Source: Alphaproteobacteria bacterium
GTDB taxonomy: Bacteria > Pseudomonadota > Alphaproteobacteria > UBA828
Length of the DNA: 64,000 bases
Direction: 5' to 3'
Assembly (NCBI GenBank): GCA_965214705.1
Contig: CBDCCI010000002.1
Coordinates: 672,001 to 736,000, forward strand
Below, piece by piece: positions 14,351-57,774 of the stretch (position 1 is its first letter; each line of letters begins with the position of its first letter). The notes beneath the pieces were generated by a model. The model ran no database searches. It was not told the DNA's origin and saw nothing but the letters and a program-made list of their open reading frames with translations. The position numbers were made by a program, and so were the translations under genes.

Positions 14351-15403
14351 TCACGGTTTCCCCCTGTGGGTCGGCGGCAGCGCCGGCGGGCCGCGCGTCG
14401 AGCGGGGCTCATGGCGGCGGCGGATTTCGCGGACGAGGCGCATGACGCCGCCGCAGTGGGGGCAGGCCACGGGCGCGGTGCCGATCTCGGGCTCTTCGTC
14501 GGGCTCGGCCCGAGCGCCGTCCACGCTTCCCTCGGGGGCGGCGCAGCCGAGGGCGCCGAGAGCCTGGCGTGCTCTCTCCAGCGTGCTGGCGCGGCAGCCG
14601 TTGGCGAGGATGCCGAAGTAGCGAATGCGGTGCATGCCGTCCGGCAGGACGTGCCTCAGGAAGCGGCGGATGAACTCGTCGGCGCTCACGGTGGCGATGC
14701 CGTAGCGCGGCTTTCTCTGCCCCGGCGCCTTGGGCTTTCGGTGGCGGAAGGAGACCGTCTCGCCGTCGAAGGAGACGATGCGGCTGTCGGAGATGGCGAT
14801 CCTGTGCGTGTAGTGCGAGAGGTACCGGAAGACCTGCTCAGGCCCGCGGAAGGGCCGCTTGGCGTAGACCACCCAGTCCCTGGCCCGGGCGGCGGCAAGC
14901 GTGGCGTGGAACTCGCCGGGATTGGCGAGGTGGGCGAGGGTGCCGTGGAACTCCAGGTCCCCCCGGCCGTGGGCGCGGGCGAGCTCCTCGAGGAAGAGGC
15001 GGCGGAACAGGCTGCCGAGGACCTTGACGGGGGCGAGGAAGGTGGTGCTCCCCGTCTTCCACTCGCCACTGTCTACGTCGAAGCCCGCGTTGGGCACGAC
15101 CACGTGCAGGTGCGGGTGGAAGCGGAGCTTCTGATCCCAGGTATGGAGGACCGCGGTGCCGCCGATGCGCATGCCGCCGTGGCGGGGATCGGCGGCGATG
15201 GTGCGCAGGGTCTCGGCGACGGCCCGGAAGAGGATGTCGAACACCACCCTGCGGTTGCAGAAGGCAATGGCGGCAACCTCCTTGGGCAGGGTGAAGACCA
15301 CATGGAAGTAGGGCACCGGCAGGATGTCCCCGGCGCGCTCCTCGCTCCAGAGGTTGGCGGCGAGACCCTGGCAGGTGGGGCAGTGGCGGTTGCGGCAGGA
15401 GTT
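14351..15403 (-). pseudogene. IS91-family transposase, C-terminal part (N-terminus at 19814-20002)
   Basis: NSCRNRHCPTC, HTW..HPHLH, YLSHY; one visible aa difference from 56226-57467. Confidence 0.9.
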
Positions 15404-15479
15404 CTTATGAGCTCTCTCCGCAAGGCCCGGCTTCATCTACGTCAATGGCATTCGCAATCTCTCCACTCGAATCCGCGGC

Positions 15480-15748
15480 CGATGTCCAGGCAGAACGTCG
15501 TTTCCACGCAGCGATCCGCCACGCTGCTCAGCTCTTATCCGGTTCGGAACTCCGGCGCTTGCCGGCTCCGTGACCCCAATACCGCATCCAAGCGGTGGTG
15601 ACGTTCCGGGAGGCGGGACCCATCTGTAGAACGGTGCCAAGCGGCGACCCAACTCTTGCCCGGTCACACGCCTTGCCCGGCATCCTCCGCGGCCGCGTCC
15701 GACCACGTCGGAACCTCCTGTATTTTCCCGTTCGTTCGGCCGGTGCCC
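15480..15748 (-). ncRNA. Putative bridge/seekRNA of the IS110 element (boundaries approximate)
   Basis: 3' non-coding region contains segments matching both halves of the insertion target (15650-15660, 15625-15634) and the donor junction (15579-15583, 15532-15538). Confidence 0.65.
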
Positions 15749-15935
15749 TCAGGAGACGATGGCGCCCTCAGGCACCAGTCCTTGGGTGGCATAGCGCCAC
15801 AGCGCGATCAGCAGCTTGCGCGCGACCCCCACGATCGCCCGCTTCCTCGCTCGCCGGTCCCTCCCGCCACCGGCATCCCTGGCGACGTAGGCGTGGAACC
15901 ACTTCGTGATCGCGCTTTCCGGTTGCAGCTTCAGC
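15749..15935 (-). pseudogene. IS110 transposase, C-terminal fragment
   Basis: LQPESAITKWF..RARKRAIVGVARKLLIALWRY..G.VPEGA. Confidence 0.85.
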
Positions 15936-16025
15936 GTAAGCGGTATCGGGCCCCCATACTTCCAGCGGATCTGATTTCGGGGCTGACTCTCCGCCTTGAC
16001 CACGAGCCACACAGGAGAGATCGCG

Positions 16026-16451
16026 ATGACAGATTCGATTTTGGCATCTGGCGACGGTGTCGCTGTTGCTTCGGTTGAGATCCCAGCTTCTGAGGGAGCC
16101 GCCCCGGCTCCGTCTGAGCCGGCCCCCATGCGACGCTGGCCGGACGATGAGAAGGCGCGGATTGTCTCGGAGAGCTTTGAGCCGGGCTCTTCGGTTGCGG
16201 CGGTCGCGCGCCGCCATGGCGTCAGCGATACGACCCTGACCAAGTGGCGGCGGCGCGCGCGGGAGGGAACTCTTCCGGGCGCTCGGATTGGTGGCTCTGC
16301 ACCGCCATTTGTTCCCGTGGTGGTTGATAGCGTGACGTCCGAGCGGACGGTGGCGATCGAGGCGCTAGGCGTGGTCGTTCGCCTTCCGGTGGAGAGCGCG
16401 GTCGATCGGATTGTTGCGGTGGCCTCGGGCCTGGGCCGGGCGTCGTCATGA
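16026..16451 (+). CDS. tnpA: IS66 TnpA (HTH_Tnp_1)
   Basis: RRWPDDEKARIVSESFEPGSSVAAVARRHGV..WRR. Confidence 0.9.
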   Translation: MTDSILASGDGVAVASVEIPASEGAAPAPSEPAPMRRWPDDEKARIVSESFEPGSSVAAVARRHGVSDTTLTKWRRRAREGTLPGARIGGSAPPFVPVVVDSVTSERTVAIEALGVVVRLPVESAVDRIVAVASGLGRASS

Positions 16452-16798
16452 TCGCGGCCCCCTCGCTTCGCATCGTGTTGGCGACGCGGCCGGTTGATTT
16501 TCGTCGCGGCCACGACGCGCTTGCGGCGACGGCGGCGGGGGAGCTGGACCTCGATATCTATTCCGGGGTGATCGTGATCTTCCGCTCGCGCCGCGGCGAC
16601 AGGCTCAAGCTCCTTGCGTGGGACGGCAGCAGTCTGGTGATGACCTACAAGCGTCTGGAGCAGGGCCGCTTCGCCTGGCCTCGGATCGAGGATGGTGTGA
16701 TGCGCCTTACGAAGGGCCAGTTCGAGGCCCTCTTCGAGGGTCTGGACTGGCGCCGGGTGAAGGCCCGCCCGGTTCGCCGCCCGCTGGCGGCGGAGTGA
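16448..16798 (+). CDS. tnpB: IS66 accessory protein TnpB
   Basis: PVDFRRGHDAL..FRSRRGDRLKLLAWDG..KRLEQGRFAWP. Confidence 0.93.
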   Translation: MIAAPSLRIVLATRPVDFRRGHDALAATAAGELDLDIYSGVIVIFRSRRGDRLKLLAWDGSSLVMTYKRLEQGRFAWPRIEDGVMRLTKGQFEALFEGLDWRRVKARPVRRPLAAE

Positions 16799-16891
16799 GG
16801 CGGCACGCAGGCGGGGCCGCAGATTTCGGTCGCGGTCCCGCCTGCACTTTTCCCTGGTCATGCATTGGCGAATCGGATTAAGGGGTGGCCC

Positions 16892-18607
16892 ATGCCGAAG
16901 GTCACGCCCTCACCCCTCAGCAGCGCCGGTTCGCCGTCGCCTGCGGTGGTTTCGGCGGCGCTGGCGGCCCTGCATGCGGAGCTTGACGACGAGCGCGCGG
17001 CGCGCCGGGCGACGGAAGCAGCCCTATGCGAAGCGGAGCAGGCACGCGGCGCGGCGGAGGCGGCGAGGCAGACGGCGGAAGCGCGGGCGGCACGGCTGGA
17101 GGCCGAGAACGCGCAGAGCGCGGAGCAGATCAGCCGGCTTGAGCATCTCAACAAGGAGCTCAGGAAGGCGCTGTTCGGTCCGCGCTCCGAGAAGCTCGGC
17201 GAGGACGAGCGCCAGCTTACGTTCGAGGAGTTTTGGGCGGCGATCGCTGAAGCCGGCGGTCGGCCCGAGGCAGATGACCAGGAGCAGGACGAGGGGGCTG
17301 GCGGCAAGCGCCGGCGGCGCTCTTCCCGGGGGTCGCGCAGCGGGGTGCGCTTCGGGCCCCAGGTCGACCGGCGCGAGGAGGTGATCGAGCCGGACACGAT
17401 CATGTGCCCCTGCGGCTGCGGCGAGATGACGAAGATCGGCGAGGACCGCAGCGAGCGGCTGGACTATGAGCCGGCGAAGTTCACCGTCATCGAGACCGTG
17501 CGCCCCCGCTACGCCTGCAACAAGTGCAAGGGGGGCGGGGTGGTGCAGTCGCCGGCGCCGGCCGCTCTGGTCGAGGGCGGCCTTCCCACCGAGGCTCTTC
17601 TGGCGCAGGTGCTGATCGCGAAGTACGGCGATCATTGCCCGCTCTATCGCCAGTCGCAGATCTACGAGCGCTCGGGGATCGAGGTTCACCGTGCGACGCT
17701 GGCGACGTGGGTGGGCCAGGCGTCGTTTCACCTGCGCCCCGTGGTCGCTTGCCTGGAGGATGAGCTGAAGAAGTCGGATCACCTGGGTCTGGACGAGACC
17801 ACGATCCGCGTTCTCGACCCGGGCCGGGGCAAGACGAAGACGGGCTACATGTGGACCCTTGTGCGTGACGAGCGCCACTGGAGCGGCACGGACCCGCCGG
17901 GCGTCGTCTATCGCTATGCGCCCGGCCGCGGCGGCAAGTATGGCGCCGAGCTTATGGAGGGCTTTTCGGGGACGGTGCAGCTCGACGGCTACTCGGGCCA
18001 CAACATCCTGGCGCGGCCGGACCGGGCGGAAGGCCCTGTGACGCGGGCCCTCTGTTGGGCGCATGTAAGACGGAAGCTGAAAGAGGTATACGACTCGAGC
18101 GCATCGCCGATCGCGCTGGCCGGTCTGAATCGGATCGCGAAGCTCTATGCGATCGAGAAGAAGATCCGGGGCAAGCCGCCGGCGGAGCGCCGCGCGATCC
18201 GTTGGGAGGAGTCGGCGCCGATCGTGAACACCTTCGGTGTCTGGCTCGACGAGCAGCGCTCGCGCGTCTCACCGCGCTCGCGTCTCGGCGAGAAGCTGAC
18301 CTATATCGCCAACCAGTGGGACGGGCTGCTGGAGTTCCTGCACGACGGTCGTGTCGAGATCGACTCGAACCTGGTGGAAAACCGAATCCGGCCGCTGAAG
18401 CTCACCGCCAAGAACGCGCTCTTCGCCGGCAACGACGAGGGTGCGCAAGCCTGGGCCCGCATCGCCTCGCTGATCGAGACCTGCAAGATGAACGGCGTCG
18501 AGCCCTACGCCTGGATGCGGAGCACGCTCGAGAAGATCGCCAAGGGCCACCCGCAGTCGGGCATCCAGGAGCTTCTGCCGTGGAACTTCCAGCCCGAGGC
18601 AAAATGA
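16892..18607 (+). CDS. tnpC: IS66 DDE transposase TnpC
   Basis: FGPRSEK, CPCGC zinc finger, KYGDHCPLYRQ, DET, CWAHVRRK, DSNLVEN, ELLPWN. Confidence 0.95.
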   Translation: MPKVTPSPLSSAGSPSPAVVSAALAALHAELDDERAARRATEAALCEAEQARGAAEAARQTAEARAARLEAENAQSAEQISRLEHLNKELRKALFGPRSEKLGEDERQLTFEEFWAAIAEAGGRPEADDQEQDEGAGGKRRRRSSRGSRSGVRFGPQVDRREEVIEPDTIMCPCGCGEMTKIGEDRSERLDYEPAKFTVIETVRPRYACNKCKGGGVVQSPAPAALVEGGLPTEALLAQVLIAKYGDHCPLYRQSQIYERSGIEVHRATLATWVGQASFHLRPVVACLEDELKKSDHLGLDETTIRVLDPGRGKTKTGYMWTLVRDERHWSGTDPPGVVYRYAPGRGGKYGAELMEGFSGTVQLDGYSGHNILARPDRAEGPVTRALCWAHVRRKLKEVYDSSASPIALAGLNRIAKLYAIEKKIRGKPPAERRAIRWEESAPIVNTFGVWLDEQRSRVSPRSRLGEKLTYIANQWDGLLEFLHDGRVEIDSNLVENRIRPLKLTAKNALFAGNDEGAQAWARIASLIETCKMNGVEPYAWMRSTLEKIAKGHPQSGIQELLPWNFQPEAK

Positions 18608-18687
18608 CTCGCGCGCTCACGGCGCTCCTCAAGAAATCCCCGTCGTAGTCAAGCCAGATTCCGGTATGGGGTCTGCGTACCGCTTAC

Positions 18688-19705
18688 GCTTCAGCCAGCG
18701 CCAAGCCATCTGGATCATGTGCTTCCTGACATGCGAGGGGCCGGCCTTGCTGATGCCAAGATCGTGGTCGACATCTCCGCTCGCCCACGGCACCGACGTC
18801 AACCCGGCCCAGCTGCCCAACTCCCGGCGATTGCGGAAGTCCCGATAGAACACCTCGCCAGCCAGCAGTGTGGCGTCATTGAGGCCGATGCCATGGATGC
18901 GCGTAAGCGCCGCGATCATCGCCGTCCCGTCACGATTGGTCGCGTCCTGGGCTTTCCGGCCAGCCTTCAGCAGGGCCCTCTTCTCGGCCTCGATCATCTC
19001 GATATGCTCCTCAACCAGGCGAAGCATCCCCACCGCCCTCTCAATCTCTGCCCGCGCACGCGGCGGCAACGGCGCCCCATAGCCCGTCCGCGCGGTCGCG
19101 AGGCGTTCGAGGAAGTCCGGCTTGCGCGGCGCCAGATCGAAGATGCCGTGCAACTGCAAGAGCCCTTTGATCCGGTTGTTGACGCGGGTACGCTCGCTGA
19201 TCAGCGTGTCCCTCTCGCGCAGCAGGCGCTTGGCATCCTCCTGGTCCACATCGGGCACGCGCACCCAGGACATGGCCTCCGAATCGCCTTGGTCCCATGC
19301 CTTCAGAGCCCGAACCATCCTCCTCGCGTCGATACGGTCGGTCTTTTTCTTCTTGGCGCGCCGGTTCACCCGCAGGCTCGCCGGATCGTTCATGAAGATA
19401 TCGATCTCCGCGTCACGGCGCTCGATATCGCGGGCAAGCCAGAACCCCTCGTAGCCCGCCTCGTAGGTCAGCATCACCCGAGGACGGGCGCCGAGCTCCC
19501 TCGCCACCCGTTCCCGCACCGACCCGACGAGATCCAACAGTCCCGCCGTGTCGGCAGCAGCCAGTGTGTGGATGCTGATGCTGCCACCCGAGGCATCCGG
19601 GCAATGCACGCCAACGATCCACGATTTGAGGCTGATCTCCACCGCGACATAAATCGTGCTACTACTTGCGCCTGTCAGCGCGGTCGTGTCTGGACCATCC
19701 GACAT
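18688..19705 (-). pseudogene. IS110 transposase, N-terminal part
   Basis: VAVEIS, YEAG, KTDRIDA (DEDD-type RuvC domain), GIG, AGLTSVPWASG, GISKAG. Confidence 0.9.
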
Positions 19706-19813
19706 CCGTCCACTCCGTTGTTGACGATTCCGCTCGGAGAGAAGGTGCTGGCCTTCTCTCCGAGCTTGTCTAACCGCCAGAATCGATTCGGTGCCACCGT
19801 GCTCATGGTATCT

Positions 19814-20002
19814 GAAGAGCGGATGCTCGCGCCCGCAGCCCTCGCAGGCGTACATGTGGCCGCCGAGCACGGCGGTGCGGCACGCCTCGATGGCGCCCAT
19901 GACCTTGAGCCGGGCGGCGTCGATGCGCCCTTTGTGGCGCTCACGGAAAGCGGCGCCGGCGCGGCGGAAGATCTCCGCCACGCCCGCGCGTTCGGCCTCC
20001 AC
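19814..20002 (-). pseudogene. IS91-family transposase, N-terminal fragment
   Basis: Identical to the start of 56226-57467 (..CRTAVLGGH..CEGC). Confidence 0.88.
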
Positions 20003-20008
20003 GCGCCG

Positions 20009-20887
20009 TCAGTTGCGCAACGCTGCGAAGCCTGAGATCGGGTGGTCGAGGCCCTCGAACATCTTGCCGGTGACGCGGGCGTAGTGACGGGTCGTGTTCG
20101 CGCTTCGATGGCCGAGCATGTCCCGGATCACCTCGATATCGCCGCCGCGCTCGAGGAGATGGGTCGCCGCCGAATGGCGCAGGCAATGGAAGGTGTAGCT
20201 GCGGTCGAGCTCGGCAATGTCGCGCGCCCTCCTGAAGGCGGCCTGCAAGGTCTCCGTTGCGATGGGCCTGTCGAGCGAGACGCCGTAGAAGAGCCAGCTC
20301 GTCGGACGCGGCCAGATGTTCCTGTAGTAGACGCGCAAGTAGTGGATGACGATGTCCGGCAACGGTGCCATTCTCTCGGTGCCGCCTTTGCCGGAGGGGA
20401 TGTGCAGCAGCTTCTTCTCCGACAGGATGTCGCCGACCTTGATGGCCAAGGTCTCGGAGATGCGGAGCCCGCCGCCATAGCCGGTGACAATGGCAGCACG
20501 GTGGCGGAGGTCGGGTGTCGCAAGGATGAGGTGCTCGACCTCCTGCTCCGACATGTAGCGCGGCAGCTTGCCGGGCTTCTTGCGGGAGCGCAGGCCGGCG
20601 ACATGGTCAGGCCAGCCGAGTGTGTCGATGTAGAGGAAGTTCAGCGCGGCGAAGGAGACGTTGGTCGTGCCCGGACTGAGCCCCTTGTCGATCCGCCCCA
20701 GGTACCACTGGCGCACCTGCTCGGCGTCGAGCTCGTCCGGCGAGGCGTCGTAGTACCTGGCCAGGTTCTTGATCTCGCAGATGTAGGCCTTGGACGTGCT
20801 CGCGGCCAGATTGGCGATGCGGAGCTGCTCCTCCATGCGCTGGCGAAGAGGGGTGACGGTGTTCGTGTCGCACGCGGTCCCGGTCAT
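20009..20887 (-). CDS. Tyrosine recombinase of IS91-like element (copy 1)
   Basis: GLRISE, KGG, HCLRHSAATHLLE, LGH, HYARV. Confidence 0.92.
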   Translation of the reverse strand: MTGTACDTNTVTPLRQRMEEQLRIANLAASTSKAYICEIKNLARYYDASPDELDAEQVRQWYLGRIDKGLSPGTTNVSFAALNFLYIDTLGWPDHVAGLRSRKKPGKLPRYMSEQEVEHLILATPDLRHRAAIVTGYGGGLRISETLAIKVGDILSEKKLLHIPSGKGGTERMAPLPDIVIHYLRVYYRNIWPRPTSWLFYGVSLDRPIATETLQAAFRRARDIAELDRSYTFHCLRHSAATHLLERGGDIEVIRDMLGHRSANTTRHYARVTGKMFEGLDHPISGFAALRN

Positions 20888-21153
20888 TATCGATCTCCCT
20901 GGATCGCGACGGCGCGCCGCCGGACCGATCCGGCGACGGTCCGTCGCAGGGGTCGATGCTAACCACTGGTGATCGGGAGGCTGCTGGGGATCCGCCACCC
21001 GACGGGCGGAGCGCCACTGACGCAACCGGGAAGCGAACGCACAGAACAAACGGCACCCGCGACGCCTCGGAAATGAATGAACTCTACGCCGCTAACTCCG
21101 CGTAGCGGCTTCGTTCAAGTTGTTATCGATGTCCCGCGCGTCGAGACGGTCTG

Positions 21154-55108: not shown

Positions 55109-55340
55109 CTTGAACGAAGCCGCTACGCGGAGTTAGCGGCGTAGAGTTCATTCATTTCCGAGGCGTCGCGGGTGCCGTTTGTTCTGTGCGTTCGCTTCCC
55201 GGTTGCGTCAGTGGCGCTCCGCCCGTCGGGTGGCGGATCCCCAGCAGCCTCCCGATCACCAGTGGTTAGCATCGACCCCTGCGACGGACCGTCGCCGGAT
55301 CGGTCCGGCGGCGCGCCGTCGCGATCCAGGGAGATCGATA

Positions 55341-56219
55341 ATGACCGGGACCGCGTGCGACACGAACACCGTCACCCCTCTTCGCCAGCGCATGGAGGAG
55401 CAGCTCCGCATCGCCAATCTGGCCGCGAGCACGTCCAAGGCCTACATCTGCGAGATCAAGAACCTGGCCAGGTACTACGACGCCTCGCCGGACGAGCTCG
55501 ACGCCGAGCAGGTGCGCCAGTGGTACCTGGGGCGGATCGACAAGGGGCTCAGTCCGGGCACGACCAACGTCTCCTTCGCCGCGCTGAACTTCCTCTACAT
55601 CGACACACTCGGCTGGCCTGACCATGTCGCCGGCCTGCGCTCCCGCAAGAAGCCCGGCAAGCTGCCGCGCTACATGTCGGAGCAGGAGGTCGAGCACCTC
55701 ATCCTTGCGACACCCGACCTCCGCCACCGTGCTGCCATTGTCACCGGCTATGGCGGCGGGCTCCGCATCTCCGAGACCTTGGCCATCAAGGTCGGCGACA
55801 TCCTGTCGGAGAAGAAGCTGCTGCACATCCCCTCCGGCAAAGGCGGCACCGAGAGAATGGCACCGTTGCCGGACATCGTCATCCACTACTTGCGCGTCTA
55901 CTACAGGAACATCTGGCCGCGTCCGACGAACTGGCTCTTCTACGGCGTCTCGCTCGACAGGCCCATCGCAACGGAGACCTTGCAGGCCGCCTTCAGGAGG
56001 GCGCGCGACATTGCCGAGCTCGACCGCAGCTACACCTTCCATTGCCTGCGCCATTCGGCGGCGACCCATCTCCTCGAGCGCGGCGGCGATATCGAGGTGA
56101 TCCGGGACATGCTCGGCCATCGAAGCGCGAACACGACCCGTCACTACGCCCGCGTCACCGGCAAGATGTTCGAGGGCCTCGACCACCCGATCTCAGGCTT
56201 CGCAGCGTTGCGCAACTGA
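55341..56219 (+). CDS. Tyrosine recombinase of IS91-like element (copy 2)
   Basis: One visible aa difference from copy 1; full catalytic set. Confidence 0.92.
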   Translation: MTGTACDTNTVTPLRQRMEEQLRIANLAASTSKAYICEIKNLARYYDASPDELDAEQVRQWYLGRIDKGLSPGTTNVSFAALNFLYIDTLGWPDHVAGLRSRKKPGKLPRYMSEQEVEHLILATPDLRHRAAIVTGYGGGLRISETLAIKVGDILSEKKLLHIPSGKGGTERMAPLPDIVIHYLRVYYRNIWPRPTNWLFYGVSLDRPIATETLQAAFRRARDIAELDRSYTFHCLRHSAATHLLERGGDIEVIRDMLGHRSANTTRHYARVTGKMFEGLDHPISGFAALRN

Positions 56220-56225
56220 CGGCGC

Positions 56226-57467
56226 GTGGAGGCCGAACGCGCGGGCGTGGCGGAGATCTTCCGCCGCGCCGGCGCCGCTTTCCGTGAGCGCCACAAAGGG
56301 CGCATCGACGCCGCCCGGCTCAAGGTCATGGGCGCCATCGAGGCGTGCCGCACCGCCGTGCTCGGCGGCCACATGTACGCCTGCGAGGGCTGCGGGCGCG
56401 AGCATCCGCTCTTCAACTCCTGCCGCAACCGCCACTGCCCCACCTGCCAGGGTCTCGCCGCCAACCTCTGGAGCGAGGAGCGCGCCGGGGACATCCTGCC
56501 GGTGCCCTACTTCCATGTGGTCTTCACCCTGCCCAAGGAGGTTGCCGCCATTGCCTTCTGCAACCGCAGGGTGGTGTTCGACATCCTCTTCCGGGCCGTC
56601 GCCGAGACCCTGCGCACCATCGCCGCCGATCCCCGCCACGGCGGCATGCGCATCGGCGGCACCGCGGTCCTCCATACCTGGGATCAGAAGCTCCGCTTCC
56701 ACCCGCACCTGCACGTGGTCGTGCCCAACGCGGGCTTCGACGTAGACAGTGGCGAGTGGAAGACGGGGAGCACCACCTTCCTCGCCCCCGTCAAGGTCCT
56801 CGGCAGCCTGTTCCGCCGCCTCTTCCTCGAGGAGCTCGCCCGCGCCCACGGCCGGGGGGACCTGGAGTTCCACGGCACCGTCGCCCACCTCGCCAATCCC
56901 GGCGAGTTCCACGCCACGCTTGCCGCCGCCCGGGCCAGGGACTGGGTGGTCTACGCCAAGCGGCCCTTCCGCGGGCCTGAGCAGGTCTTCCGGTACCTCT
57001 CGCACTACACGCACAGGATCGCCATCTCCGACAGCCGCATCGTCTCCTTCGACGGCGAGACGGTCTCCTTCCGCCACCGAAAGCCCAAGGCGCCGGGGCA
57101 GAGAAAGCCGCGCTACGGCATCGCCACCGTGAGCGCCGACGAGTTCATCCGCCGCTTCCTGAGGCACGTCCTGCCGGACGGCATGCACCGCATTCGCTAC
57201 TTCGGCATCCTCGCCAACGGCTGCCGCGCCAGCACGCTGGAGAGAGCACGCCAGGCTCTCGGCGCCCTCGGCTGCGCCGCCCCCGAGGGAAGCGTGGACG
57301 GCGCTCGGGCCGAGCCCGACGAAGAGCCCGAGATCGGCACCGCGCCCGTGGCCTGCCCCCACTGCGGCGGCGTCATGCGCCTCGTCCGCGAAATCCGCCG
57401 CCGCCATGAGCCCCGCTCGACGCGCGGCCCGCCGGCGCTGCCGCCGACCCACAGGGGGAAACCGTGA
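56226..57467 (+). CDS. IS91-family rolling-circle transposase
   Basis: Zn-binding CxxC..NSCRNRHCPTC, HUH (HPHLH), YxxxY. Confidence 0.93.
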   Translation: MEAERAGVAEIFRRAGAAFRERHKGRIDAARLKVMGAIEACRTAVLGGHMYACEGCGREHPLFNSCRNRHCPTCQGLAANLWSEERAGDILPVPYFHVVFTLPKEVAAIAFCNRRVVFDILFRAVAETLRTIAADPRHGGMRIGGTAVLHTWDQKLRFHPHLHVVVPNAGFDVDSGEWKTGSTTFLAPVKVLGSLFRRLFLEELARAHGRGDLEFHGTVAHLANPGEFHATLAAARARDWVVYAKRPFRGPEQVFRYLSHYTHRIAISDSRIVSFDGETVSFRHRKPKAPGQRKPRYGIATVSADEFIRRFLRHVLPDGMHRIRYFGILANGCRASTLERARQALGALGCAAPEGSVDGARAEPDEEPEIGTAPVACPHCGGVMRLVREIRRRHEPRSTRGPPALPPTHRGKP

Positions 57468-57774
57468 GACGCCCGCTCGCTTCGGCCCCGCGCAACGGCG
57501 CCAAAGCGCCGACGCACGACCGAACCTGTCTCCGCTTGAGCCGGGCTGACAGCCCTCGGCTCACACCCCGCTCAGTCCTCGCAGCGTGCGCCCGCATGCC
57601 TGCCGAAAGACCGGCGCGAGCGTCGATTTTATGCGCAACTCTGCTGCCGGTGGATGCCGCCTGACGCTGACATCAGCGCACTTTCCACATAGCTCAACTT
57701 CGCCTCTCGTGGCCCGCGGCTTCGTTCAAAAGGGTTGGGCAGGCTCTCGAGAGAGAGCCTGCCCAACCCTTAAC

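Follow-up and report, generated by a model that had tools for sequence, protein, structure and literature searches.

An IS110-family element whose right end encodes a putative bridge/seekRNA directed at a coding motif of IS91-family transposases

Comparison of an IS110-family insertion sequence with its relatives suggests, with a probability of about 0.85, that its right end encodes a bridge/seekRNA that guides the element to the (Y/F)-N-S-C codons of IS91-family transposase genes. The case is a comparative one, in which site specificity, a conserved RNA scaffold and the joint change of guides and targets point the same way. The bridge/seekRNA mechanism itself is already known; what is new is the class of target, i.e. 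coding motifs of other IS families, and the natural retargeting that is visible among relatives.

The element and its insertion site

All coordinates are positions within the window, the 64,000-nt stretch of DNA that was analysed. The first-pass annotation had read 15404-19813 as an IS110/IS1111 element, and both the mapping of the ends and the transposase profiles confirm this. The element proper is 1650 bp long, belongs to the IS110 family with an IS1111-type layout, and lies on the minus strand; the window copy differs from an intact 1650-bp genome copy by a single IS66 insertion, flanked by an 8-bp duplication. Outside the nested IS66, of which there are about 50 near-identical copies across the genome, the window element is 100% identical to the intact genome copies. 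Its exact ends, 15404 and 19813, were fixed against an intact IS91 site. The parts are as follows.

15404-19813, minus: whole IS110-family element with nested IS66 (ends set against the intact IS91 site; comparison with intact copies)
18688-19813, minus: 5' part, i.e. the 108-nt left end and the transposase gene from 19705, codons 1 to about 339 (equals the first 1126 nt of the intact copy)
15936-18687, plus: nested IS66 (tnpA, tnpB, tnpC), which splits the transposase gene (8-bp duplication at 15928-15935 and 18688-18695)
15749-15935, minus: 3' remainder of the transposase gene through the stop codon (comparison with the intact copy)
15404-15748, minus: 3' non-coding (right) end, 345 nt, encoding the putative bridge/seekRNA (alignment of 20 relatives, consensus fold, pair counts)
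14351-15403, minus: interrupted IS91-family transposase gene, downstream part
19814-21049, minus: interrupted IS91-type element, upstream part, with transposase codons 1-60 (19814-20002) and a tyrosine-recombinase gene (20009-21049)
56406-56424, plus: uninterrupted target site in an intact IS91 copy, codons P-L-F-N-S-C

The transposase matches Pfam DEDD_Tnp_IS110 (PF01548) and Transposase_20 (PF02371), both over cut-off, and so has the N-terminal DEDD/RuvC-like domain and the C-terminal domain of the IS110 type; it scores 174.4 bits against NCBIfam NF033542, "IS110 family RNA-guided transposase" (cut-off 140). The element is an IS110-family IS of IS1111-type layout, in which a DEDD transposase gene separates a short left end from a long right end. 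The non-coding region is longer 3' of the gene (345 nt downstream versus 108 nt upstream), and the terminal extensions are exactly 7 and 3 bases, as in the IS1111 group. The sub-terminal inverted repeat of the reference clade is 6 bp long and that of the paralogues 7 bp, with both arms changing in concert in the latter. Assignment to the IS1111 rather than the IS110 group holds only in part, as the sub-terminal repeats are short and the transposase, at 398 residues, exceeds the roughly 330-350 given for the IS1111 group.

When the two pieces of the interrupted IS91 transposase gene (minus strand, 14351-15403 and 19814-20002) are put back together, no base is lost or duplicated and the result is the intact site at 56406-56424, which bears out the pre-insertion target that had been read from that IS91 copy. 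Empty sites also rejoin exactly for v1, a genome copy discussed below, and for three paralogue families. Among the 21 copies with a left end in the genome, 19 occupy one identical position, the IS91 P-L-F-N-S-C codons, in a single orientation and with no target duplication. Two metagenome relatives (L083 and L084; 95% protein identity) retain the reference right guide and occupy the same motif of IS91 relatives; a survey of homologous insertions, proposed as a check in the first-pass annotation, therefore places these two and the 19 genome copies in IS91 N-S-C codons. About a fifth of the IS91 copies are interrupted, and about 70 IS91 sites are still empty.

A group II intron lies 11 bases from the IS110 insertion site in at least four IS91 copies. 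Since the intron hit the same 30-bp IS91 stretch, this suggests that the motif is a hot spot for the convergence of RNA-guided mobile elements.

A putative two-domain guide RNA in the right end

The 3' non-coding end was aligned with 19 relatives (20 sequences), and a consensus fold and pair counts were obtained. The resulting scaffold has 43 pairs, which are 97.4% paired as opposed to 31-47% when the partners are slid, and 15 pairs are changed on both sides as opposed to 2-5; none of 500 shuffles attains these values, although the covariation counts overstate independence because the aligned sequences are kin. Helix 3 is 99.4% paired (one of its pairs is AU in 8 sequences, GC in 8 and GU in 3), helix 4 is 100% paired and helix 5 98.7%, two of its pairs having double-sided changes (in 7 and in 5 sequences). 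The single-sequence fold of the non-coding end is unremarkable (z = -1.23), and the end matches no Rfam family. A search for promoter-like or terminator-like sites for the putative RNA found none, and the contigs from RNA libraries hold relatives of 85-95% only, by which transcription is not demonstrated. The consensus structure divides as follows.

15612-15672, minus: target-binding domain, in which 15662-15672 pairs with 15612-15620 as the closing helix and a small hairpin (15647-15649 with 15633-15635) separates the guides
15651-15660, minus: right target guide, complementary to the target top strand (core and right half), unpaired, on the 5' side of the target loop
15624-15631, minus: left target guide, six bases in the top-strand sense of the left half followed by the core dinucleotide, on the 3' side of the target loop
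15492-15607, minus: donor-binding domain, closed by a long-range helix (15600-15607 with 15492-15499)
15578-15583, minus: right donor guide, which complements the beginning of the left end and whose first bases also serve as the 3' strand of helix 6
15532-15538, minus: left donor guide, in the same sense as the right-end tip and core

Both target guides are unpaired within one internal loop and the two donor guides fall in the second domain, the outcome sought by the folding and covariance check suggested for 15404-15748. The looped placement expected of the segments stood for the most part: the target segments do share one internal loop of the covarying scaffold, but the first two bases of the left guide as originally drawn belong to a short helix, and the donor segments do lie in the second domain, but three of the five bases of the right one are in a short helix.

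The right half of the target is complemented at 10 of 11 positions from 15660 and the left half is matched at 8 of 10 from 15634, while donor segments at 15583-15579 and 15538-15532 match the junction of the two joined ends; all four segments are thus where the first-pass annotation had put them. When the 345-nt non-coding end was shuffled 5000 times by mononucleotide, 41 shuffles attained 10/11 and 339 attained 8/10, and none held both in the observed order within 60 nt. Within the refined boundaries, the right target guide (alignment columns 65-74, unpaired) matches the IS91 site at 9/10, and the left at 4/6, or at 7/9 when the three preceding bases are counted.

Merged, the two target guides read P-F-Y-N-S-C with 3 mismatches in 19 nt to the IS91 site, reproducing the earlier reading. 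Their proposed closeness to the IS91 family consensus is also upheld, as the guide-spelled sequence has 2 mismatches to IS91 relatives with the consensus Tyr codon versus 3 to the resident Phe form. Scanning the whole 7.9-Mb genome with the guide-spelled 19-mer revealed no site at two or fewer mismatches, and the sites at three were solely the IS91 site, in 68 + 2 empty copies.

Covariation of guides with targets and alternative explanations

Sixteen distinct guide sets were scored against cognate and non-cognate flanks. The right guide matches its own right flank at a mean of 7.25/10, reaching at least 7 in 11 of the 16 sets and 6 or fewer in the other five, whereas against non-cognate flanks (240 pairs) the mean is 3.89 and 0.4% reach 7. 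For the left guide the cognate mean is 4.64/6 (n = 11) versus 1.76 for non-cognate flanks (n = 110), and in the reference clade it matches targets at just 4/6. Among paralogues, the right guide aligns best with its flank in registers that differ by one base.

Close relatives make the dependence visible. One (v4, 88% protein identity) differs from the reference at exactly two windows, those of the target guides, and is inserted in istB of IS21; its right guide matches the homologous empty sites there with no change of register. A second (L006, 88%) carries a third right guide that matches its own site in a DDE transposase gene at 9/10. v4, L006 and the paralogues each have another sequence in the right-guide window, one that follows the right flank of the element concerned. 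Comparison suggests that close relatives changed mainly this guide and that their landing sites are conserved motifs, either of IS21 istB or of a DDE transposase. These data support the earlier claim that the guides set the target, as guides and flanks change together both across the 16 sets and in close relatives in other genes. The donor guides behave likewise: the right one co-changes with the left-end sequence between reference clade and paralogues, and the fifth base of the left one co-changes with the last right-end base in the paralogues. The right end thus shows what is expected of a bridge/seekRNA, i.e. a structured RNA with a loop holding target guides for both strands that change with the target, and donor guides that fit the joined ends and change along with them.

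Some copies do not fit their own guides. The relatives L080-L082 have an IS91-like guide yet are located in a DDE site (7/10), and v1 carries the reference guides in an istB site where the right half alone matches (left half 3/9 on our reading of the flank). Together with the weak left-guide fit, such copies could indicate that the transposase protein alone recognises the site and that the matches in the non-coding end are leftovers of past recombination with the target, or chance. We give this very little credence, because transposases 88-98% identical are found in three gene families, each following its own right guide, and because the joint match is absent from the 5000 shuffles, the guides occupy unpaired loop positions of a conserved scaffold, and the protein belongs to the NCBIfam equivalog for RNA-guided IS110 transposases. 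Guidance by an RNA could also operate with no preference for mobile elements, IS91 being hit only as the commonest near-match in an IS-laden genome while the original target was another. The resident site does have three mismatches, a perfect site is absent from the genome, 10 of 17 related targets have no Pfam identity, and one target adjoins a ParB-like gene. We nevertheless consider this unlikely, since the guides read P-F-Y-N-S-C, which is the family consensus, and come within two mismatches of Tyr-bearing IS91 relatives, relatives from other samples lie in the same motif, and every identified target in the close clade is a transposition gene.

It is also conceivable that one or a few original insertions were multiplied otherwise, either as a trans-mobilised IS91-plus-IS110 composite or through gene conversion between IS91 copies. 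Both routes are possible because the IS91 copies are near-identical (99.8-100%) and number about 90; moreover, the IS110 copies are mutually 100% identical and the IS91 haplotypes appear recombinant. Some of the 19 copies may owe their place to gene conversion or to transport of the composite by IS91. As an account of the pattern as a whole this is improbable: the 19 insertions are spread over at least 10 IS91 SNP haplotypes also found in intact copies, and they occur on two diverged IS91 backbones (29 and 31 differences) as well as on a single IS91 relative whose identity of only 78-86% leaves little homology for conversion. The independent metagenome relatives at the same site in other IS91 relatives point the same way, and multiplication leaves unexplained both the guide matches and the other locations of relatives with other guides.

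Proposed mechanism, significance and comparison with known systems

RNA-guided insertion aimed at an IS91 coding motif, as first proposed with three mismatches in 19 nt, is thus supported by sequence comparison. The right end would be transcribed into a two-domain bridge/seekRNA; the internal loop of domain one would present the two target guides, and in domain two the donor guides would base-pair where the ends of the excised circle meet. Circle and target would then be recombined by the transposase, in complex with the RNA, at a two-base core. The element has A-G at this core and the IS91 site has A-A, and G-U and G-T wobble may make the two compatible. The target guides appear set to codons of the conserved IS91 zinc-binding motif (Y/F)-N-S-C, and would therefore direct insertion to one position and one orientation inside IS91 copies, inactivating them.

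A coding motif conserved in other mobile elements can, on this evidence, serve an RNA-guided element as a portable landing site present in many copies, and its use inactivates those other elements. The genome also provides a natural specificity data set, with about 20 on-target events at a three-mismatch site with a mismatched core, one clear off-target event for which the right guide alone is responsible, and close relatives that have been redirected to other genes, which bears on the mismatch tolerance of these recombinases and on which guide is dominant. A more tentative idea, which we think somewhat less probable than its negation, is that the clade consists of dedicated hyperparasites of other insertion sequences. 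Guides tuned to conserved catalytic or zinc-motif codons would then, with tolerance of wobble and a few mismatches, reach an entire IS family including its diverged members, and a switch of host (IS91, IS21, DDE-type) would amount to rewriting mainly the right target guide around a shared xAC-AAC centre. Insertion in the sense direction, in frame for IS91 and istB, would let host transcription and translation enter the element's transposase gene, and the knock-out of about a fifth of IS91 copies would act as a brake on IS expansion.

IS4321/IS5075 and the attC-targeting IS1111 members are IS1111-type elements with a fixed target within another mobile element, and what they hit is non-coding, either end sequences (Tn21-family inverted repeats) or recombination sequences (attC). 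IS621 inserts in REP-type repeats. The present element likewise has a fixed target inside another mobile element, but this target is a coding motif, so insertion inactivates the transposase of the host element. Group II introns that home into mobile-element genes are similar in being RNA-guided and in using another mobile element as a safe harbour; they retrohome by reverse transcriptase and ribozyme, without a DEDD recombinase or a DNA circle.

There is a close likeness to the IS1111-family seekRNA elements ISEc11, ISKpn4/ISPst6 and ISPa11, as described by Siddiquee et al. 2024 (PMC11187229). Shared with these are the DEDD transposase, the long non-coding region 3' of the gene, the absence of target duplication, terminal extensions of 7 and 3 bases outside the sub-terminal inverted repeats, the order of the guides (top-strand complement 5' of bottom-strand complement) and the natural reprogramming of relatives. 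The same text gives transposases of 330-350 residues, as opposed to 398 here, and sub-terminal repeats usually of 11-13 bp (7-17 bp in PMC11208160), as opposed to 6-7 bp. The targets it describes are a short linear site, attC and REP sequences, as opposed to conserved-motif codons in the transposition genes of other IS families. With the IS621 bridge RNA of the IS110 group, as presented by Durrant et al. 2024 (PMC11208160), the putative RNA shares two domains, the same pairing logic and a core dinucleotide common to donor and target. In that account the IS621 RNA is encoded in the left end, the core is C-T and the donor domain is a simple internal loop, whereas the putative RNA here comes from the right end and has its guides in the opposite order, A-G or A-A forms the core, and the donor domain is a multi-branch region.

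Insertion into the IS91 transposase gene and occupancy of the site

The IS110-family element interrupts an IS91-family host element on the minus strand. Two genes belong to this host, one for a tyrosine recombinase and one for a transposase with the Pfam domains Zn_Tnp_IS91 and Y2_Tnp. The features in the window are as follows.

15404-19813, minus strand: insert of 4410 bp that splits the IS91-family element at one point
15936-18687: nested IS66 with an 8-bp duplication; the transposase is broken after residue 339
about 55110-57600: intact copy of the same IS91, the comparison partner for the insertion

Comparison with the intact IS91 shows that the element entered P-L-F-N-S-C (56406-56424 in the intact form) between the codons for Phe and Asn, with nothing lost and nothing duplicated. 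An IS110-family element of 1650 bp, itself disrupted by IS66, makes up the insert; apart from the IS66, the window copy does not differ from intact copies elsewhere in the genome. The intact element consists of a 108-nt left end, a transposase of 398 residues with the Pfam domains DEDD_Tnp_IS110 and Transposase_20, which scores above the cut-off for the NCBIfam 'IS110 family RNA-guided transposase', and a 345-nt right end. IS66 lies in three separate copies of the element at three different positions (window 15936-18687; G000 C3:1714916-1717880; C2:520095-522880, G000 being the source assembly); in the whole genome there are about 50 near-identical copies of IS66 and about 90 of IS91.

In the source assembly (7.9 Mb in three contigs), BLAST locates 21 left ends and 23 right ends. 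The identical reference type accounts for 17 copies. Every one of these 17 occupies the same IS91 position, in one case within an IS91 relative that is only 78-86% identical. The diverged variants v2 and v3 share this position, giving 19 of 21 in total, and the remaining two copies (variants v1 and v4) lie in IS21 istB genes. With 68 full-length IS91 copies still uninterrupted, the element occupies about a fifth of the IS91 sites. Of the interrupted copies, 15 could be paired, and these fall into at least 10 SNP haplotypes common to intact copies, plus two backbones with 29 and 31 differences. Because the interrupted copies are spread over these haplotypes and backbones, several independent insertions into IS91 copies are the simplest reading of these sequences; gene conversion, or an IS91 that moved the composite, may have added some of the copies. 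Two partial structures accompany the complete ones: the final 165 nt of the right end are tandemly repeated directly behind a complete copy (G000 C1:1874702-1874866), and at G000 C2:623309 a remnant of the right end, 89% identical and with another right flank, stands without a left end.

At a distance of 11 bases upstream from the IS110 site, a group II intron sits antisense in no fewer than four copies of IS91; near C1:4025022 one IS91 copy has both intron and IS110 element. The intron is recognized by Rfam as group-II-D1D4-6 (172 bits) and contains reverse-transcriptase/maturase ORFs. The same 30 bp of the zinc-finger region are thus shared by two distinct mobile elements, both RNA-guided. 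The intron loci are as follows.

G000 C1:791408-795526: group II intron (locus L087)
G000 C3:1609611-1615236: group II intron (locus L086)
G000 C3, ending at 2984178: left part
G000 C1, ending at 4037210: left part

Guides and fold of the putative bridge RNA

The first-pass annotation had placed four guide segments, two for the target and two for the donor, in the right end, and we reproduce both their coordinates and their match counts. When the right end is shuffled 5000 times, both target matches in this order and at most 60 nt apart are never obtained (taken singly, the matches arise in 41 and 339 shuffles). A script that takes nine bases from the left guide region and appends the right guide's ten bases in reverse complement yields a 19-mer that again spells P-F-Y-N-S-C, as had been proposed. 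Scanning the genome with this sequence reveals no site at two or fewer mismatches, and the only sites at three are the IS91 site itself in its 68 + 2 empty copies, against an arithmetic chance expectation of about 1.6. One of the three mismatches falls on a synonymous Ser codon position.

Within a sample of the class, Zn_Tnp_IS91 is present in 17 of 301 genomes, and Y-N-S-C-R-N-R-H-C-P is nearly invariant among these proteins. The resident IS91 has Phe in this motif, its nearest relatives have Tyr there, and these lie two and three mismatches from the guide-spelled sequence, so that the guides match the family consensus a little better than they match the resident copy.

Folding and covariance of the right end, which had been suggested as a check, give a consensus (RNAalifold, 20 sequences, 19 distinct) of two domains, with the target guides on either side of an internal loop in the first. 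A closing helix surrounds this loop, with the right target guide 5', a three-pair hairpin in the centre and the left target guide 3'. A long-range helix, two of whose pairs covary strongly, closes the second domain. Inside it are a first hairpin and the right donor guide, part of which forms the 3' strand of this hairpin, along with a second, variable hairpin and the left donor guide, which is unpaired. In the curated structure, which leaves out three pairs between the two donor guides, 97.4% of cells are paired, compared with 31-47% when the partners are slid. Pairs changed on both sides number 15 (2-5 with slid partners), a count that overstates independence as the aligned sequences are kin, and none of 500 shuffles attains these values. 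A single-sequence fold with the right guide in a hairpin loop was dropped in favour of the alignment fold, since its stem is unsupported by the variants.

An Rfam scan of window 15000-20200 with E up to 10 returned chance-level matches only, and a promoter and terminator scan found neither. A -35-like hexamer, some 20 nt inside the right-end tip, is conserved in all paralogues and, less strongly, in the reference clade. Only in the circle, where it would be joined to the left end, could the hexamer contribute to a promoter, as has been reported for this family (PMC11187229). RNA-library contigs from another study (X1 and X6 against locus L001:1300-1850) contain 85-95% relatives of the non-coding end and are mute on transcription and RNA ends; one such relative differs again in its right-guide window, and the same contigs include empty IS91 sites with the Tyr codon.

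Relatives with other guides and other targets

Named targets of the element, its variants and its relatives are listed below.

IS91 transposase: reference, v2, v3, and the metagenome loci L083 and L084
IS21 istB: v4 and v1
DDE_Tnp_1 transposase: locus L006, metagenome loci L080-L082, and the paralogue pB2
another IS110-family transposase: the paralogue pC

On a scaffold otherwise conserved with the reference, the variant v4 (88% protein identity), close to the 3' end of an istB gene, is altered precisely in the two windows of the target guides, and its right guide matches the homologous empty sites in the same register as the reference. An out-of-register site for v4 was rejected, as those empty sites show the same register and the integrated copy is short of one core base. 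L006 (88%) has a third right guide, which matches its own site in a DDE_Tnp_1 transposase gene at 9/10. The expectation that homologous insertions would be flanked by IS91 NSC codons holds for L083 and L084 (95%), where the reference right guide accompanies the same motif in Tyr-bearing IS91 relatives. L080-L082 (three contigs, 93%) occupy the DDE site despite an IS91-like right guide (7/10), which counts against a simple one-to-one rule of guide and target. The variant v1 has the guides of the reference, yet it is inserted, in antisense orientation, at the Walker-A codons of a different istB; to the right of this site the match to the right guide and the bases beyond it runs for 13-14 bases, and the left half hardly matches at all. 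This has the appearance of an off-target insertion led by the right guide.

Paralogues at 53-55% protein identity are present in the source genome and, among 60 related genomes searched, in 12; their right ends can be aligned with the reference on a common scaffold. In a comparison of 16 distinct guide sets, right guides agree with their own right flanks at a mean of 7.25/10, compared with 3.89 for 240 non-cognate pairs, and left guides with their own targets at 4.64/6, compared with 1.76 for 110 non-cognate pairs. A constant register between right guide and core was rejected, since the paralogues require offsets of -1 to +1. In three paralogue families a two-base core A-G stands once in the empty target and at both junctions once the element is inserted; the IS91 core of the reference clade is A-A. 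Donor guides and sub-terminal repeats co-vary with the element ends between clades. Irregular junctions are seen on the right side of v3 and v4 (L004 and L003), where donor and target cores differ, and in v3 the first base past the right end is unlike the IS91 sequence.

For 10 further related elements the longest open frame beside each junction gave no Pfam match to name the target gene, an absence that is weak because this crude choice of frame overlooked the true IS91 frame in the left flank of L083; one of the 10 targets adjoins a ParB-like gene. A scan of a genome contig collection yielded only three relatives, and a distant search of a plasmid collection turned up other IS110 transposase genes, solely as short matches of 65-93%, and no close relative bearing a name.

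Across the IS91 and istB insertions (L001 14-1405; L003; L083; L084) the host frame crosses the 108 nt of the left end without a stop and joins the transposase frame of the IS110 element, and because it stays open, fusion or translational coupling with the host gene is possible. In-frame read-through as a general rule was rejected: the DDE-inserted L006 and L080 have 109 nt before the start codon, and there the frame is closed.

Comparison with known systems

The guides and their IS91 target had been read correctly. A literature search did not find coding motifs in the transposition genes of other IS families as targets of IS110-type elements, although published supplementary bridge-RNA tables may list such cases; the conserved coding motif may have been chosen as a strategy rather than by accident. 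Ends of Tn21-type transposons are known targets of IS1111 members. So are attC sites. Natural reprogramming of guides among relatives has been reported (PMC11187229).

The pairing logic of the present guides is that of the IS621 bridge RNA, in which left guides pair with the bottom strand and right guides with the top strand, core included (PMC11208160). In its location within the right end, in the order of its guides and in the terminal extensions of 7 and 3 bases, the system agrees with the IS1111 family and its seekRNA, as described in PMC11187229. Unlike the usual IS1111 members described there, the element has short sub-terminal repeats and a transposase of 398 residues, a misfit that makes its assignment to the IS1111 group, made on layout, tentative. 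On its sequence, the element is a real and well-defined RNA-guided insertion sequence of a kind already known.
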